From positions 1 to 11,700 of IMG/VR virus record IMGVR_UViG_2657244940_000002: a DNA stretch of 11,700 bases, one strand, 5' to 3'. Made by a program: the position numbers and the translations under genes. The notes below the pieces were generated by a model. It was not told the origin of the DNA. It did not search any database and saw nothing but the letters and a program-made list of their open reading frames with translations. Shown here one piece after another: positions 4,282 through 7,817 of this stretch (positions within the stretch are counted from its first letter, which is position 1; the number at the start of each line of letters is the position of its first letter). This DNA is from a virus. Taxonomy: Duplodnaviria > Heunggongvirae > Uroviricota > Caudoviricetes.

Positions 4282-4485
4282 TTACGGTGCTGTTTTAAGT
4301 CCTGCCGGGATTTCGTTATTATCCATGTGAATAACTTTATCGACCGGATAGCAGTTACCGGGAATTTTTTGTTCTGCTGCGGCAGCCATGCATTCTTTCA
4401 TTGAACCGTAAATGTCAATAACCATGTCAACAGGCTCGCCAGTATTAAGAAAAACAGTCAGAGTGAGGGCAATAGTAGTATTCAT
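4282..4485 (-). CDS. ydfD: YdfD-like small membrane (lysis-type) protein
   Basis: 67-aa ORF starting at the internal ATG (MNTTIALTLTVFLNTGEPV…) with a hydrophobic N-terminal segment. Its ATG overlaps the dicB stop as ATGA. Synteny dicB-ydfD matches Qin prophage. The longer track ORF (to 4539) would overlap dicB. Confidence 0.6.
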   Translation of the reverse strand: MNTTIALTLTVFLNTGEPVDMVIDIYGSMKECMAAAAEQKIPGNCYPVDKVIHMDNNEIPAGLKTAP

Positions 4486-4670
4486 TGCCAGTATCCTTTT
4501 TGCATCGGGCGTAAACGTGCCAGCATTGAAAGAATGCATATTTTATTTAATAGCTCCCGTTCGTGTTTTCTCTTATTAATGGCATCTTCAGTAAATACAG
4601 GGTTACTGATTCTGACACCAATTTCAAAACAACCTTCAGACGTATTGACGTTTGGTAATAACGTTTCCAT
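4482..4670 (-). CDS. dicB: Cell-division inhibitor DicB
   Basis: 62-aa product METLLPNVNTSEGCFEIGVRISNPVFTEDAINKRKHERELLNKICILSMLARLRPMQKGYWQ closely matches my recollection of E. coli K-12 DicB (62 aa). GAGG lies 8 nt upstream of the ATG at 4670. The 94-aa track ORF is an upstream extension with no RBS. Confidence 0.8.
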   Translation of the reverse strand: METLLPNVNTSEGCFEIGVRISNPVFTEDAINKRKHERELLNKICILSMLARLRPMQKGYWQ

Positions 4671-4853
4671 TATCGCGTCCTCAACAATGAATTTTGTGAT
4701 GCGGTGCCTGGTGCCTCCAGGTGACGTTAACCAGTTAATAATTAACGCCGGATACAGAGAACCCACCCATAAGAACCAATACGGAAGTCAACTGGCCTTT
4801 TTAACTGTTCCGCGTGCGCTGAGCCGCATTCACCGCATCACAAAATTCACTTT

Positions 4854-4916
4854 AAAAGGGGCGGGTATCATGGGAAAAACAAAACGGATACCCGCCAAAA
4901 GGTAATCAACATGGGT
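4854..4916 (-). ncRNA. dicF: DicF-like small RNA (divergent homolog) with intrinsic terminator
   Basis: Minus-strand sequence …CCATGTTGATTACCTTTTGGCGGGTATCCGTTTTGTTTTTCCCATGATACCCGCCCCTTTT, about 175 nt upstream of dicB. It has a 10-bp stem (GGCGGGTATC/GATACCCGCC) followed by CCTTTT. The TTTGGCGG(G)TATC…GTTTT…CCGCCC(C)TTTT skeleton resembles my recollection of K-12 DicF, but the 5' and loop regions differ. Exact ends are uncertain. Confidence 0.45.
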
Positions 4917-5326
4917 TGTTGCAGCGGGGTTGTCACTCAGGCGTATGGTCAACCTGACAACCCGGTGGACATTTGCGAGGAACGGAGAACCCCCGCCATA
5001 CTTACCGCCGCGCCATTTCGCGGAGTGCCACAACCGGAAGCGCACGGTCGACGAAAATTTAACGACAGGCTATCTATGAACCAGCAACCTCGCCGTGCGC
5101 TTTCGCGTTATGCTCTGACTTTTCAGAGAAATATCCTTTCAGTAAACTGTCAGTGCCGGATGCTCACCCGTGTCCGGCGCACACACTCCACCTCACCCGT
5201 GGAGAACTCCTTAATTACCAACCCTCAGGAGGGTGAATGTTAAAATCAACGCTTATTGCTAAATGCCTTTATCAAAATCGCATGGTAAGCAGCATTTCAA
5301 TAGGCGAATCTGTAGTTAAAAGTATT

Positions 5327-5352
5327 TTCGAAGAGTACTTTCGAAGAGTACT
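5327..5352. repeat. Perfect 13-bp tandem duplication (TTCGAAGAGTACT x2)
   Basis: Read directly: …AGTATT TTCGAAGAGTACT TTCGAAGAGTACT TTTC…. Each unit contains the palindromes TTCGAA and AGTACT. It sits in AT-rich DNA downstream of the 135-aa cargo ORF. Confidence 0.8.
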
Positions 5353-5460
5353 TTTCTGGGCGTGATTTTAATAAATGGAATACCAAATTACCGCCAGCAG
5401 TTTCAACGCGTATTCTGAAAGCAACTGAAAGAGCAAGTACAATTCGCGTTAACTATTTCA

Positions 5461-5868
5461 TTAAAGATTTGTGGGATCTTTGATATCCACAGAGCCTAAA
5501 GTATGTGCATATGGATGTGCTATTGTGCGCCCCTGTAAATTTGCATCGTTTTCTAAATCTTTTGATTTCAACAGAACATCAGCAAGACTCTGAATCATGC
5601 AGAGATAATCAAAAACAGTTGCCGTTTCTGTTCTGATTGCTGAAATAACATGACCATTCAGGCAAACAGAAATTACCCGTTCATCAATATCGTTTTTCTG
5701 TTTTTGATTATCAGAACCATATAGCCCTGAAAAAGCATTGCGCACATTACGAACCATATTATCGATGGTTTCTTTTTTGGTGTATGCCGGGTCAATTTTC
5801 ACCAGACTATCACCGAGTGTCGTTGCAGCAATTATCTGGATTTCTTTTGGTAAATCTTTAAATTCCAT
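5461..5868 (-). CDS. Hypothetical protein, AT-rich cargo (moron-like) gene inside the dicB operon
   Basis: 135-aa ORF (MEFKDLPKEIQIIAATTLGDSLVK…) with GAGG 7 nt upstream of the ATG. It starts 22 nt after the ydfC-like stop on the same strand. The local sequence is markedly more AT-rich than its flanks. No motif I recognise, and no predicted transmembrane segment. Confidence 0.7.
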   Translation of the reverse strand: MEFKDLPKEIQIIAATTLGDSLVKIDPAYTKKETIDNMVRNVRNAFSGLYGSDNQKQKNDIDERVISVCLNGHVISAIRTETATVFDYLCMIQSLADVLLKSKDLENDANLQGRTIAHPYAHTLGSVDIKDPTNL

Positions 5869-5890
5869 TATTAGCCTCGTTGGTTAACCA

Positions 5891-6109
5891 TTAACGTGGG
5901 TATGTAATCATTCTGGCAATGCTTAATGCCGCTGCTTTTTCCAGATTGGTGATATCCTGCTCCAGAGCGGACAGATTTTCAGCCTGCTTAGCCCTGGCTT
6001 CATTGGCCCATTTCAGGTCCTGCGCAGCCTTAATTTTCTGGTGCATCCACTCATAAAGTTCATCATCGGTATAGTCTGGCGCGATGATGACGGGTTCTCG
6101 TTTCTGCAT
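5891..6109 (-). CDS. ydfC: YdfC-like small protein (dicB operon)
   Basis: 72-aa ORF with GAGGAA 7 nt upstream of the ATG, in the position of ydfC (dicA-ydfA-ydfB-ydfC order as in Qin). Predicted helical/coiled-coil C-terminus. Confidence 0.65.
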   Translation of the reverse strand: MQKREPVIIAPDYTDDELYEWMHQKIKAAQDLKWANEARAKQAENLSALEQDITNLEKAAALSIARMITYPR

Positions 6110-6138
6110 ACTGATTCCTCGCGGTGCTGCTTCGCTTA

Positions 6139-6267
6139 TCAGCCGTTAGATTTTGCCGGGCTGGAAAGCGCCTGTTTAAATTCGCTGAAGCTGAGGGCTT
6201 CTTCGCCTTCGGCAAGGCCTTCGAAGTATTCTTCGTAAGCCTTTTCCATGATTGTGTCGAAATCCAT
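6139..6267 (-). CDS. ydfB: YdfB-like small protein (42 aa)
   Basis: Not in the ORF track (too short). Manual translation gives MDFDTIMEKAYEEYFEGLAEGEEALSFSEFKQALSSPAKSNG with AGGTGG upstream. Its ATG at 6267 lies immediately after the ydfA-like stop (6269-6271). Size and position match ydfB of Qin. Confidence 0.5.
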   Translation of the reverse strand: MDFDTIMEKAYEEYFEGLAEGEEALSFSEFKQALSSPAKSNG

Positions 6268-6268
6268 A

Positions 6269-6424
6269 TCACCCACCTGAATCTCTTTCCAGCCAGCGAC
6301 GCGCTCCAGATTCGGTTTTAAACGTTTTGCTTTTGGTATACGTCATTGCGGTGAACGTGCCGTCCTGGTTTGGAAACACGCCGTACACCAGAGATTCGTT
6401 GTTGCCAAGATCGATAGTATCCAT
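6269..6424 (-). CDS. ydfA: YdfA-like small protein (51 aa, DUF1391-like)
   Basis: Internal start of the 77-aa track ORF: MDTIDLGNNESLVYGVFPNQDGTFTAMTYTKSKTFKTESGARRWLERDSGG, with GAGG 5 nt upstream of the ATG at 6424. It is the first gene downstream of the predicted dicB-operon promoter. The longer N-terminal extension would run into the promoter. Confidence 0.6.
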   Translation of the reverse strand: MDTIDLGNNESLVYGVFPNQDGTFTAMTYTKSKTFKTESGARRWLERDSGG

Positions 6425-6501
6425 GCTGACCTCATTTCCCCTTAACGCCGGGGTAGCGGAACTGTTTGCTGAGAACACCGTGCGGTGTCTTGATGCAAGC
6501 A

Positions 6502-6555
6502 AGATTAGCTATGACTAACAATTTGGTCAAGCATTTTTGTTTGTCATGACTAACA
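6502..6555 (-). promoter_or_regulatory. dicB-operon promoter with DicA-type operators
   Basis: On the minus strand: TTGACC (plus 6525-6530), 17-bp spacer, TAATCT (plus 6502-6507), about 75 nt upstream of the ydfA-like ATG. The palindromic operator TTAGCTATGACTAA (6505-6518) overlaps the -10 and spacer. A related site TTGTCATGACTAACA (6541-6555) lies just upstream of the -35. Confidence 0.55.
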
Positions 6556-6565
6556 TTTTGGGCAA

Positions 6566-6599
6566 CCAAAAAGATAACGCATTGATTGCGTTATCTTTT
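6566..6599 (-). terminator. Intrinsic terminator at the 3' end of dicA
   Basis: Minus strand: CAAAAGATAACGCA-ATCAA-TGCGTTATC-TTTTTGG, a 9-11 bp stem, 5-nt loop and U-tract. It overlaps the dicA stop codon and sits between dicA and the downstream operon promoter. The plus-strand reading also ends in a T-rich tail, so it may act bidirectionally. Confidence 0.45.
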
Positions 6600-6998
6600 G
6601 TTTGTTCGTTGACGGGCTTTTAATAACTCTTCAAAGAGTTTGTTGAAATTTTTTACTCGGGCGCGCATCTCGGTGAGCTGAGCATCCTGTTCTGATTCAG
6701 GCAATGCATTAAAAAGCTCAAGGAGCTCATGTTCTTTGGGGGATAGAGCAACTGGCTCCTCAATAGGTGGTGATGGCTGCTTGTCTTCATCGCCAAATAG
6801 AATCCATGTTGGCGAGCACTGCAGTACTTTGCTGAGGGCAAAAAGATTCTTTCCTGTAGGTTCGCTATCATCCCGCTCCCATTGTGAAACCGATACGTGA
6901 GAAATTTTCAGGGCTTTAGCAAGAGACCTTTGGGTGTATTTGAGGTTTTTTCGGCGATATCTAATGCGTTCGCCAATGGTTAAATTTTTTGTATCCAT
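6591..6998 (-). CDS. dicA: Prophage repressor DicA (XRE-family HTH, P22 C2-like)
   Basis: 135-aa ORF with an N-terminal HTH (…YTQRSLAKALKISHVSVSQWERD…). It closely matches my recollection of K-12 DicA (same length). It is divergent from a cro-like gene, with palindromic operators in the intergenic region. Confidence 0.85.
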   Translation of the reverse strand: MDTKNLTIGERIRYRRKNLKYTQRSLAKALKISHVSVSQWERDDSEPTGKNLFALSKVLQCSPTWILFGDEDKQPSPPIEEPVALSPKEHELLELFNALPESEQDAQLTEMRARVKNFNKLFEELLKARQRTNKR

Positions 6999-7081
6999 AG
7001 TTAGCTAATGCTAAATCTTATTGACTATGTTTTTGTTAACATCTATTTTGTTAGTTATGGCTAACAATTAAGGTGCTTTAA
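6999..7081. promoter_or_regulatory. Divergent dicA/dicC promoter-operator region
   Basis: Two 14-bp palindromic operators, TTAGCTAATGCTAA (7001-7014) and TTAGTTATGGCTAA (7051-7064), match the TTAG-N6-CTAA pattern seen upstream of ydfA. A plus-strand promoter candidate is TTGACT (7021-7026), 17 bp, TATTTT (7044-7049), with AAGGTG before the dicC ATG. Confidence 0.6.
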
Positions 7082-7312
7082 ATGCTTAAAACTGACGCAC
7101 TTTTGTATTTCGGTTCAAAAACAAAACTTGCACAAGCTGCTGGTATTCGTTTGGCTTCGCTTTATAGCTGGAAAGGGGAGCTAGTACCTGAAGGTCGCGC
7201 GATGCGCCTGCAAGAGGCATCCGGCGGGGAACTTCAGTACGACCCCAAAGTTTATGACGAATATCGTAAGGCAAAGCGGGCGGGGCGGTTGAACAATGAA
7301 AATCACCCCTGA
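7082..7312 (+). CDS. dicC: Cro-like regulator DicC
   Basis: 76-aa ORF (MLKTDALLYFGSKTKLAQAAGIRLASLYSW…) divergent from dicA. It matches my recollection of K-12 DicC in size and sequence. Confidence 0.8.
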   Translation: MLKTDALLYFGSKTKLAQAAGIRLASLYSWKGELVPEGRAMRLQEASGGELQYDPKVYDEYRKAKRAGRLNNENHP

Positions 7313-7817
7313 ACAGGTTTGTGAGGCTCTGGATGCCTGGGTGTGCCGACCAGGAATGACACAGGAGCAGGCGACGATATTAATCACGGAAGCATTCTGG
7401 GCTCTGAAAGAACGCCCGAACATCGATGTTCAACGCGTCACGTTTAATGATGGCGAGGTTGATCAACGGGCGCTGGGCGTTAACCGGGTGAAGATATTCG
7501 AACGCTGGAAAGCTATCGACACCAGGGATAAGCGGAAAAAATTCACGGCGCTGATTCCGGCAATTATGGAGGCTATCCGGATTAATGATTTCAGGTTGTA
7601 TCGTGAAATTAGTGACGGAAAAAGCATCACGTACATGATCGCCGGGTTAAACAAAGAATATGGCGATGTGGTGGAGTCCGGGCTGCTTTTTGCAGATCCA
7701 GCTGTAGTGGATCGTGAAACTGACGAACTTATAGAAAAAGCCATTGCTTTCAAACTTGCGTATCGACAGCAATACCAACAAAAAGCTGGATGGAATTATG
7801 AGTCTTCTTTTTGCTGA
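7296..7817 (+). CDS. YdaT-like protein (CII-like regulatory domain family)
   Basis: 173-aa ORF whose start overlaps the dicC end by 17 nt. The central segment …KRKKFTALIPAIMEAIRINDFR… resembles the K-12 Rac YdaT motif (…KIQKLIPAILAILPRELR…), and YdaT sits in the same position after the cro-like gene in Rac. Family call is by resemblance only. Confidence 0.6.
   Translation: MKITPEQVCEALDAWVCRPGMTQEQATILITEAFWALKERPNIDVQRVTFNDGEVDQRALGVNRVKIFERWKAIDTRDKRKKFTALIPAIMEAIRINDFRLYREISDGKSITYMIAGLNKEYGDVVESGLLFADPAVVDRETDELIEKAIAFKLAYRQQYQQKAGWNYESSFC

Follow-up and report, generated by a model that had tools for sequence, protein, structure and literature searches.

The window, which is the whole 11,700-nucleotide stretch of Caudoviricetes DNA analyzed here, encodes a divergent pair of regulatory genes. 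On the minus strand, dicA (6591..6998) encodes a CI/C2-like repressor of 135 aa, with a Pfam HTH_3 domain (2.7e-16) and 93% identity to DicA of Escherichia coli K-12. The Pfam search returned nothing beyond HTH families and no Peptidase_S24 match, and DicA is stated in the literature to lack the Ala-Gly cleavage site. On the plus strand, dicC (7082..7312) encodes a Cro-like protein (Pfam P22_Cro, 1.3e-11) that shares 74 of 76 residues with K-12 DicC. Downstream of dicA, the ORF list and Pfam matches to DUF1391 and DicB define a minus-strand operon (4482..6424) with ydfA (6269-6424), ydfB (6139-6267), ydfC (5891-6109), a 135-aa ORF without assigned function (5461-5868; hereafter, the cargo ORF), and dicB (4482-4670). 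The gene names dicA, dicC, and ydfA-...-dicB, proposed earlier in a reading of the letters without database searches (hereafter, the sequence-only reading), were confirmed by the Pfam matches, the K-12 identities, and the order of the genes on the minus strand. The intergenic regions of the window are AT-rich.

The operon is colinear with that of K-12, save for a 647-bp insertion at 5224-5870. The cargo ORF is located between ydfC and the slot that is occupied by DicF in K-12, and this diverged slot retains only a hairpin (4854-4900, minus strand). No DicF match (RF00039) was detected at the Rfam gathering threshold, nor at E ≤ 1 over 4400-6600, where the Rfam search gave a sub-threshold STnc100 match in the dicB leader. 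The promoter scan detected no promoter-like site on the minus strand from the operon promoter (hereafter, dicBp) to the cargo ORF, which is presumably co-transcribed from dicBp. The 74-nt ydfA leader has no significant RNA fold (z = +0.25), and the ORF list contains no N- or gene-24-like ORF between dicBp and ydfA. No evident nutL/boxA equivalent was seen downstream of dicBp, where the leader carries conserved motifs. Between dicA and dicBp, the terminator scan identified a strong intrinsic terminator of dicA (6569..6599, minus strand) that overlaps the dicA stop codon, folds with -16.7 kcal/mol (z = -5.5), and is followed by UUUUUGG. It insulates dicBp from dicA read-through.

Palindromes of the form TTAG-N6-CTAA flank dicA. 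The window contains three exact matches, at 6505-6518 (TTAGCTATGACTAA), 7001-7014 (TTAGCTAATGCTAA), and 7051-7064 (TTAGTTATGGCTAA), versus 0.06 expected in 11.7 kb, and three were reached in none of 200 shuffled windows. A fourth site at 6540-6553 (TTTGTCATGACTAA, TTTG-N6-CTAA) is in register with one mismatch; this one-mismatch class is not enriched over the whole window (7 seen vs 3.4 expected). We built an 18-bp weight matrix (PWM) trained only on two of the four site types described below, Oc and the proximal dicBp operator, from loci of other genera, with the window excluded. Its top four matches in the window were Oc (27.3 bits), the proximal operator (23.2), the distal operator (17.3), and Oa (10.7), and the next-best match scored -4.1 bits. 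All four sites are beyond chance, because their scores exceed the null maximum (95th percentile, 8.7). The four related sites of the sequence-only reading were thus recovered, three of them as exact motifs, and the one placed at 6541-6555 proved inexact, with its register at 6540-6553. The full operator is an inverted repeat of 18–20 bp, and its consensus can be refined to TGTTAG-YYATRR-CTAACA.

The dicA-dicC intergenic region (~83 bp) is 98% identical to that of K-12. It contains Oc (7048..7067; TTGTTAGTTATGGCTAACAA), the equivalent of OR1 in phage P22, which is identical at 19 of 20 positions to the K-12 counterpart TTGTTAGTTATGACTAACAA. Oc spans -8..+12 relative to the homologous dicC start, and its inverted repeat overlaps the -10 and the start site; a DicA site is annotated at the same positions of dicCp. 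In K-12, 5'RACE located the dicC start and placed the -11 A within the homologous hexamer. Evidence that K-12 DicA binds Oc came from in vivo assays, from point mutants, and from a gel shift with crude extract; one A>C substitution in the TTAG/CTAA half-site was enough to abolish binding (Yun et al. 2012; PMC3441716). By analogy with K-12, we regard Oc as the main DicA operator. The promoter scan placed the dicC promoter at 7021..7049 on the plus strand (TTGACT-17-TATTTT), with a predicted start at ~7056.

The second exact site of this region, Oa (6999..7016), aligns with P22 OR3, of which it is the equivalent, and abuts the dicA start codon. Its core (7001-7014) is identical to K-12 at 14 of 14 positions, and its centre is atypical, reading CTAATG (CATTAG in the dicA sense) and not YYATRR. 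Om (7024..7041; TGTTAACAAAAACATAGT in the dicA sense) lies halfway from Oa to Oc, the position held by OR2 in P22; it is degenerate, has a single good half-site, and receives no PWM score. Om was named from its sequence only (PMC3441716), and it is missing from the sequence-only reading, which had listed 7001-7014 and 7051-7064 correctly. In vivo, neither K-12 Oa nor K-12 Om bound DicA when isolated, a result given there as data not shown (PMC3441716). Two candidate -10 elements for the dicA promoter were considered, TAAGAT (7020..7015) and a TAGCAT inside Oa that matches the P22 PRM -10 in position. No credible -35 accompanies either of them, in agreement with K-12, where the dicA promoter is reported to be unrecognisable and to require activation (PMC3441716).

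On the other side of dicA, the proposed operon promoter TTGACC-17-TAATCT is present on the minus strand, where "near-consensus" overstates its quality. The -35 (TTGACC, 6530..6525, read from the sequence) matches the consensus at five of six positions and aligns with the annotated -35 of P22 PL. The -10 (TAATCT, 6507..6502), separated by a 17-bp spacer, matches TATAAT at three of six, with TAnnnT kept. A consensus promoter scan did not call dicBp, and no better minus-strand promoter was found by eye within 6480-6560. Among homologues, the -10 is conserved as TAAYNT, the positional counterpart of the P22 PL -10 (TAAATT), and the -35 region is conserved across genera as CTTGAYC/CTTGCC. By homology, transcription would start at 6494..6495 on the minus strand, 7-8 nt past the -10; the annotated 5' end of P22 PL is 7 nt past its own -10, and a CATCA motif aligns with dicBp. 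The accessible literature yielded no mapped dicBp start and no DicA footprint at dicBp.

Two operators accompany dicBp. The proximal one (6503..6520; TGTTAGTCATAGCTAATC on the minus strand) carries the exact motif, is the equivalent of P22 OL1, and aligns with the OL1/PL region. It occupies the dicBp spacer and the first three bases of the -10, whose TAA doubles as operator half-site bases. The distal one (6538..6555; TGTTAGTCATGACAAACA on the minus strand), the equivalent of OL2, has one perfect half-site and one degenerate half-site (CAAA for CTAA). Both had been described as overlapping dicBp, which holds for the proximal site, whereas the distal site sits upstream of the -35, at about -60..-43 and 35 bp upstream of the proximal site. 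The degenerate half-site is present in all E. coli Qin-type loci; in several other genera the distal operator is a perfect palindrome, and the GTTAG half is kept in 79-83 of 83 loci. The spacing between the two operators is 33-36 bp in every locus but one.

The comparative set comprised 85 unique related loci with 65-100% DicA identity. A DicA scan of genome contigs yielded five loci, a first scan of viral contigs only relatives of at least 93% identity, and the collection was extended by three further scans using distant homologues. TTAG/CTAA is located exactly at -66 (Oc) and -16 (Oa) from the dicA ATG in 85 of 85 loci, and the proximal TTAG/CTAA is invariant in all 83 unique loci in which it was compared, lying +71..+78 past the stop codon of dicA, or +130 in two of them. 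Half-site entropy is zero, in intergenic DNA that is otherwise saturated with changes. Across the locus set, 261 of 265 exact motif matches fall in the two regulatory stretches, and the four in the remaining 208 kb are at chance level. The motif is absent from 11 loci with the repressor helix S[HY][AS]TISLWESDN, and P22-like TTRAG...CTYAA palindromes are found there at the same four positions. The operator half-sites thus covary with the DicA recognition helix. In the literature searched, this set is the first systematic support for where exactly the two dicBp operators lie.

These patterns bear on whether the palindromes could be chance matches in AT-rich DNA or targets of host factors (H-NS/Cnu, YjdC), a reading we consider extremely improbable. 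An action of YjdC and of a Cnu-H-NS complex at the dic locus has been reported, and an unidentified protein also shifted a K-12 dicA promoter fragment (PMC3441716). However, the shuffled windows, the positions fixed across genera, the chance frequency of the motif outside the regulatory stretches, and the covariation with a phage repressor helix all argue against such an origin, and chance is effectively refuted.

Some of the sites, in particular Oa and the proximal CTAA half, might instead be kept as promoter, start-site, or translation-start elements and not be bound by a protein. Oa lies directly against the dicA ATG and overlaps the place where P22 has the PRM -10 and start, the TAA of the dicBp -10 is the operator TAA, and Oa was negative in the K-12 assay described above. 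The invariance of Oa could partly stem from the promoter, start site, and start codon of dicA that it overlaps. Nevertheless, both Oa half-sites are invariant and shift along with the other three sites in the loci with a different helix, and by position Oa corresponds to P22 OR3, which is annotated as a C2 site; this makes the explanation unlikely. Dual use of the same bases by operator and promoter is the norm in lambdoid-type switches, and the two readings are therefore not exclusive.

A further question is which protein the palindromes serve. They might mainly be DicC (Cro) sites, with DicA acting only at Oc and the ydfA operon repressed indirectly or via other DNA, which we judge to be very unlikely. 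The repressor and Cro of lambdoid switches share operators, the proximal dicBp site matches Oc as well as any (23.2 bits), and the half-sites covary with the recognition helix of DicA, the one helix compared. In K-12, deletion of dicA raised the activity of an ectopic dicBp-lacZ fusion 22-fold and deletion of dicC was without effect (Ragunathan et al. 2023; PMC10448788). The case for DicC is that the genome-wide binding data considered are its own, with ChIP-seq peaks on either side of dicA and the palindrome TT[ACT]G...C[GAT]AA (PMC11430063), that isolated K-12 Oa and Om did not bind DicA, and that one source enters a K-12 DicA site at dicB without a location. DicA, too, is reported to be included in a ChIP-seq compendium.

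We conclude that the four palindromes very probably serve as operators in the immunity region of a P22-like prophage of the Qin/Kim type, where the HTH protein DicA binds them as a dimer and the Cro-like DicC binds them too. An immunity switch in which the repressor controls both its own region and the operon, as the sequence-only reading had it, is supported by the orthology of the sites, the binding of DicA to K-12 Oc, and the 22-fold derepression of K-12 dicBp. DicA at Oc, repression of dicCp and dicBp, and DicC on either side of dicA are established in K-12 and would apply to the window by analogy. Since Oc covers the -10 end and start site of the dicC promoter, bound DicA would block dicC, and following the K-12 precedent it may also stimulate the dicA promoter, which is weak and nearly leaderless. 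Oa probably has low affinity and serves to turn dicA off, through DicC or through DicA that binds cooperatively or is present at high concentration. At dicBp, DicA probably contacts both sites: it would exclude RNA polymerase because the proximal site fills the spacer and the first -10 bases, and the distal site probably assists through cooperative binding.

Active DicA would keep ydfA-ydfB-ydfC, the cargo ORF, and dicB off, and the operon would be transcribed once DicA loses its activity, which in K-12 is brought about by an antirepressor, or once DicC takes over the switch. For the cargo ORF, control by DicA is a reasonable inference. To call the cargo ORF silent in the lysogen goes too far, because in K-12 a subpopulation derepresses dicBp spontaneously, in a bistable switch that also involves the antirepressor Rem (PMC10448788). 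Among near-identical prophages, no intergenic positions vary more than the YYATRR centres of Oc and the proximal site, and nine natural variants of the Oc centre occur. The changes are all transitions and come in many combinations, also where two loci have a DicA that is 100% identical. A joint reading, possible yet doubtful, is that affinity is tuned prophage by prophage, that control in trans operates among co-resident Qin-like prophages, and that Oa is a DicC-preferring and not a DicA site, in the way that OR3 serves Cro. The half-sites are common, and therefore any resident DicA-type repressor could act on every co-resident Qin-like prophage. If true, dicB-type operons and cargo such as the 135-aa ORF would be controlled in trans by resident DicA-type repressors.

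Identification of the palindromes as Qin/P22-type repressor sites is correct but already known and adds nothing new, and it matters little beyond annotation. It does place the cargo ORF and ydfABC-dicB under a well-studied repressor/anti-repressor switch, which offers a route to switch the genes on, by deleting or titrating DicA or by expressing Rem or DicC.

Among known systems, the Gifsy GfoR/GfhR-type switches resemble the window in having a short repressor without a cleavage domain, and K-12 DicA is relieved by a small antirepressor; unlike in those systems, an antirepressor gene is absent from the window, where tblastn with K-12 Rem found no homologue. As in lambda, the divergent repressor and cro genes share operators, the behaviour is bistable, and an early-left promoter that follows the repressor gene directly is shut by the repressor as well. 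In contrast to lambda, the operators have no sequence similarity, RecA-dependent cleavage is not expected for DicA, and induction in K-12 is by the antirepressor Rem. Of the lambdoid features, the window has an early-left promoter that lies past the repressor gene and holds an operator between its -35 and -10; it lacks three operators at each of OR and OL and a self-cleaving repressor of the S24/LexA type.

The P22 immC region is closer. In its N-terminal HTH domain, DicA shares 57-59% identity with C2, the layout is the same (OR1-3, PRM, OL, PL), and the DNA can be aligned in the vicinity of OR3 and the c2/dicA start. P22 PL (TTGACC-17-TAAATT) and dicBp share the -35 and the 17-bp spacer, in DNA that aligns, and both systems have an operator between -35 and -10 with a second one 35-36 bp upstream. 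They differ in the half-site (TTAAG with a 4-bp centre in P22, TTAG with a 6-bp centre in DicA-type sites), in the S24 self-cleavage domain of C2, which the 135-aa DicA lacks, and in the number of operators, the window having two clear sites per region and a degenerate middle OR site. No third OL site was found in the window, where the dicA terminator occupies that position.

The closest relative is the Qin (Kim) prophage of K-12, as described by Bejar et al. 1986/1988, Yun et al. 2012, and Ragunathan et al. 2023; the operator assignments of Bejar 1986 and Cam 1988 are given as relayed in later papers. The window differs in its operator centres (by transitions), in the distal site (CAAACA, versus CATACA in K-12), in the 647-bp insertion with the 135-aa ORF between ydfC and the DicF slot, and in its diverged DicF sequence without an Rfam match. 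After dicC it carries an intact YdaT/CII-like gene, where K-12 has only the pseudogene ydfX, and integrase, excisionase, and replication genes are intact on its flanks. Of the features of a Qin/Kim-type switch, only the DicF sRNA between ydfC and dicB is missing, and this bears on the operon cargo and not on the operators. The DicA orthologue, the divergent DicC, the Oc repeat, and a dicBp with Oc-like operators driving ydfABC...dicB are all present. The gene order (dicB<-ydfCBA<-dicBp, dicA<- ->dicC), the dicBp hexamers, the proximal half-sites, and the position of the dicA terminator are the same. The window sites are orthologues of the K-12 Qin operators, and the switch is of a type long described in E. 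coli K-12.

Three exact matches to the palindrome TTAG-N6-CTAA were detected in the whole 11,700-bp window against 0.06 expected, a count reached in 0 of 200 dinucleotide-preserving shuffles. They correspond to the proximal site at dicBp, the leftward promoter of the dicB operon (6505-6518, TTAGCTATGACTAA), and to Oa (7001-7014, TTAGCTAATGCTAA) and Oc (7051-7064, TTAGTTATGGCTAA) between dicA and dicC. The sequence-only reading had counted four sites; the fourth, the distal leftward site, is real and imperfect, with one mismatch in the register 6540-6553 (TTTGTCATGACTAA). The one-mismatch class as a whole was not enriched in the window (7 vs 3.4 expected). Mismatches to the 18-bp form TGTTAG-N6-CTAACA number 0, 1, 2 and 3 in the four sites. 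As an independent test, the window was scanned with an 18-column weight matrix whose only training data were the Oc and proximal sites of other-genus loci with 65-80% DicA identity. The same sites took ranks 1-4, i.e., Oc (7049-7066; 27.3 bits), proximal (6503-6520; 23.2 bits), distal (6538-6555; 17.3 bits) and Oa (6999-7016; 10.7 bits), compared with -4.1 for the fifth match and a null maximum whose 95th percentile is 8.7. The proposed family of related palindromes is thus borne out by both the exact count and the matrix ranking.

We also gathered 246 loci with DicA relatives, which amount to 96 unique regulatory-region pairs and 44 protein variants. The main set comprised 85 unique loci with the repressor helix S[HD]VS[VI]SQWER (65-100% identity), those with a named source being from Escherichia, Citrobacter and Serratia; the protein family was also found in Klebsiella, Cronobacter and others. 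In 85/85 loci, TTAG-N6-CTAA precedes the dicA ATG by exactly 66 and 16 bp, and in 83 it also follows the dicA stop by 71-78 bp (130 bp in two of them), the other two having unrelated DNA past dicA. The eight half-site positions did not vary in the 85 loci, and in the 65-80% identity group the intergenic DNA around them has changed to saturation. Nearly all exact matches in these loci (261/265) fall inside the two regulatory stretches, the remaining four being spread over 208 kb at about the chance rate. At the distal leftward site, GTTAG is conserved in 79-83 of 83 loci, and the spacing to the proximal site is 33-36 bp (one locus deviates); several genera have a perfect palindrome here, and in all E. 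coli Qin-type loci the inner half is degenerate. The refined operator consensus is TGTTAG-YYATRR-CTAACA.

A sister set of 11 loci (58-64% identity) has the helix S[HY][AS]TISLWESDN. TTAG-N6-CTAA was absent from all 11, and P22-like palindromes, TTRAG...CTYAA, occupy the same four positions. Such helix/half-site covariation is the best evidence short of wet work that the operators are cognate. In this sister group (IMG/VR loci L232-L244), the four sites lie within -70 to -1 before and +30 to +100 after the dicA-like gene and have the form TTRAG-N4-CTYAA, which resembles a natural switch of specificity inside one repressor family.

Entropy at the Y/R positions of the operator centres (7055-7056 and 7059-7060 in Oc, 6509-6510 and 6513-6514 in the proximal site, in window coordinates) is 0.5-1.0 bit across the 62 unique loci whose DicA is at least 93% identical (loci L008-L087), compared with an average of 0.17 bit at other intergenic positions and zero in the half-sites. 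All centre changes were transitions, with YYATRR kept. Nine different Oc centres were found, and even loci whose DicA is 100% identical have several of them.

The 20-mer at 7048-7067 (TTGTTAGTTATGGCTAACAA) differs from K-12 Oc (TTGTTAGTTATGACTAACAA; given as the other strand in PMC3441716) at one central base. For K-12 Oc, Yun et al. reported DicA-dependent repression in vivo, a DicA-dependent gel shift with crude extract, and loss of binding when one A of the TTAG/CTAA half-site is changed to C; the dicC promoter, whose start was determined by 5'RACE, has a -10 that Oc overlaps (PMC3441716). A later reporter study lists the annotated DicA site as -8 to +12 of the dicC promoter. In the window this promoter is TTGACT-17-TATTTT (7021-7049), and with its -11 A at 7045 the segment 7048-7067 is exactly -8 to +12. 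Oa is identical to its K-12 counterpart, and Om is a degenerate middle site (7024-7041). According to Yun et al., isolated Oa and Om of K-12 were negative for DicA binding (data not shown there; PMC3441716). Across the comparative loci the centre of Oa is fixed and atypical (CATTAG in the dicA sense), which may explain weak binding.

At dicBp, the -35 TTGACC (6530..6525) and -10 TAATCT (6507..6502) lie on the minus strand with a 17-bp spacer, and K-12 shares the hexamers and the proximal half-sites. Calling this promoter near-consensus was an overstatement, because the -10 matches at only 3/6 positions; TAnnnT is kept, its TAA is the end of an operator half-site, and homologues read TAAYNT. 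As the P22 PL 5' end is 7 nt past the -10, the predicted dicBp start is 6494-6495, which places the proximal operator at about -25 to -8 and the distal one at about -60 to -43. The claimed promoter overlap therefore holds for the proximal site and fails for the distal. In K-12, dicBp-lacZ rises 22-fold on dicA deletion, and repression is relieved by the antirepressor Rem and spontaneously in a subpopulation (PMC10448788). K-12 DicC ChIP-seq had its strongest signal at the dic locus, with the motif TT[ACT]G...C[GAT]AA and sites inferred on both flanks of dicA (PMC11430063); one source describes the DicA site at dicB as without known location. Past the predicted start, the ydfA leader (~6444-6476, minus-strand transcript) has motifs conserved across genera, i.e., CAC(C)GCACRGTG, a short inverted repeat, and ACGTTCCGC. 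The leader has no significant fold in the window (z = +0.25), and nothing resembling a boxA/boxB nut site was recognised.

The minus strand carries dicA (6591-6998; a 135-aa HTH_3 protein, 93% identical to K-12 DicA), ydfA (6269-6424; DUF1391), ydfB (6139-6267), ydfC (5891-6109), a 135-aa cargo ORF with no assigned function (5461-5868) and dicB (4482-4670; Pfam DicB); dicC (7082-7312; P22_Cro family, 74/76 residues as in K-12) is on the plus strand. A strong dicA terminator, a hairpin then U-run (6569-6599; -16.7 kcal/mol, z = -5.5), lies just ahead of the leftward promoter. In L157-L161 and L230 (IMG/VR), the first 35 bp past the dicA stop hold a terminator stem of operator-like sequence (TTAGCTAAC...GTTAGCTA then a T-run), which may be coincidental or may be a third operator that also acts as the terminator.

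In the proposed switch, DicA dimers on Oc would block dicC transcription and, by K-12 precedent, activate the weak dicA promoter. DicA on the proximal leftward site would shut RNA polymerase out of dicBp, with the distal site probably adding cooperativity. Oa, at the dicA start, likely serves dicA shut-off. The repressing protein may be DicC, whose induction in K-12 reduces dicA 48-84-fold (PMC11430063), or DicA itself when occupancy is high. DicA has no self-cleavage domain, so induction is expected via an antirepressor or a flip of the switch; no rem homologue was found in the window. The cargo ORF starts 22 bp past ydfC, and no promoter-like site was detected on the minus strand between it and dicBp. 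The sole terminator-like match in the ORF is weak, and the DicF-slot hairpin comes after the ORF in the operon; control of the ORF by DicA is thus a well-founded prediction.

The window and the K-12 Qin prophage are colinear apart from 647 bp inserted in the window (5224-5870), which bear the cargo ORF. This ORF belongs to phrog_1363, a PHROG of unknown function, and has no Pfam match. Of 5,426 complete E. coli genomes, 646 contain at least 80% of the 701-bp stretch 5200-5900, and in O145 RM9872 another ORF occupies this place, so the dicB operon has a variable cargo slot here. The DicF slot (4854-4900, minus strand) has diverged from K-12, its 5' (seed) part being replaced or deleted, and it gave no Rfam match to DicF even at E<=1. 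It keeps a 10-bp GC-rich hairpin then a T-run (GGCGGGTATC...GATACCCGCC, -17.2 kcal/mol), which could be a DicF variant or a mere terminator between the cargo ORF and dicB. The dicB leader just upstream of dicB has a sub-threshold match to Rfam STnc100 (RF02076; 4693-4847, minus strand; 33.5 bits vs a gathering threshold of 47, E = 5e-5).

The next gene after dicC is an intact YdaT/CII-like one (7296-7817, plus strand; Pfam YdaT_toxin, phrog_163 'CII-like transcriptional activator'), in whose place K-12 retains no more than a truncated pseudogene, ydfX. With the integrase, excisionase, exonuclease and replication genes also intact, the window prophage looks less decayed than Qin. The viable phage PhiR42_1 has the same immunity region, including the three exact sites. 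Alignment of the window to the annotated P22 immC pairs OR3 with Oa, OR2 with Om and OR1 with Oc around the repressor start. On the leftward side the -35 CTTGACC is identical, both spacers are 17 bp (P22 PL, TTGACC-17-TAAATT, 5' end 7 nt after the -10; window, TTGACC-17-TAATCT), OL1 lies between -35 and -10 as the proximal site does, and OL2 is 36 bp upstream vs 35 bp in the window. The operator finding is correct in substance, and the immunity switch is already known, with descriptions going back to 1986-1988 and refinements in 2012, 2023 and 2024. Mildly new, and from the comparative set only, are the dicBp operator positions and consensus, the helix/operator covariation, and the finding that operator centres of near-identical prophages vary unusually much and by transitions only. 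The window adds one more Qin-like prophage, with a different cargo.
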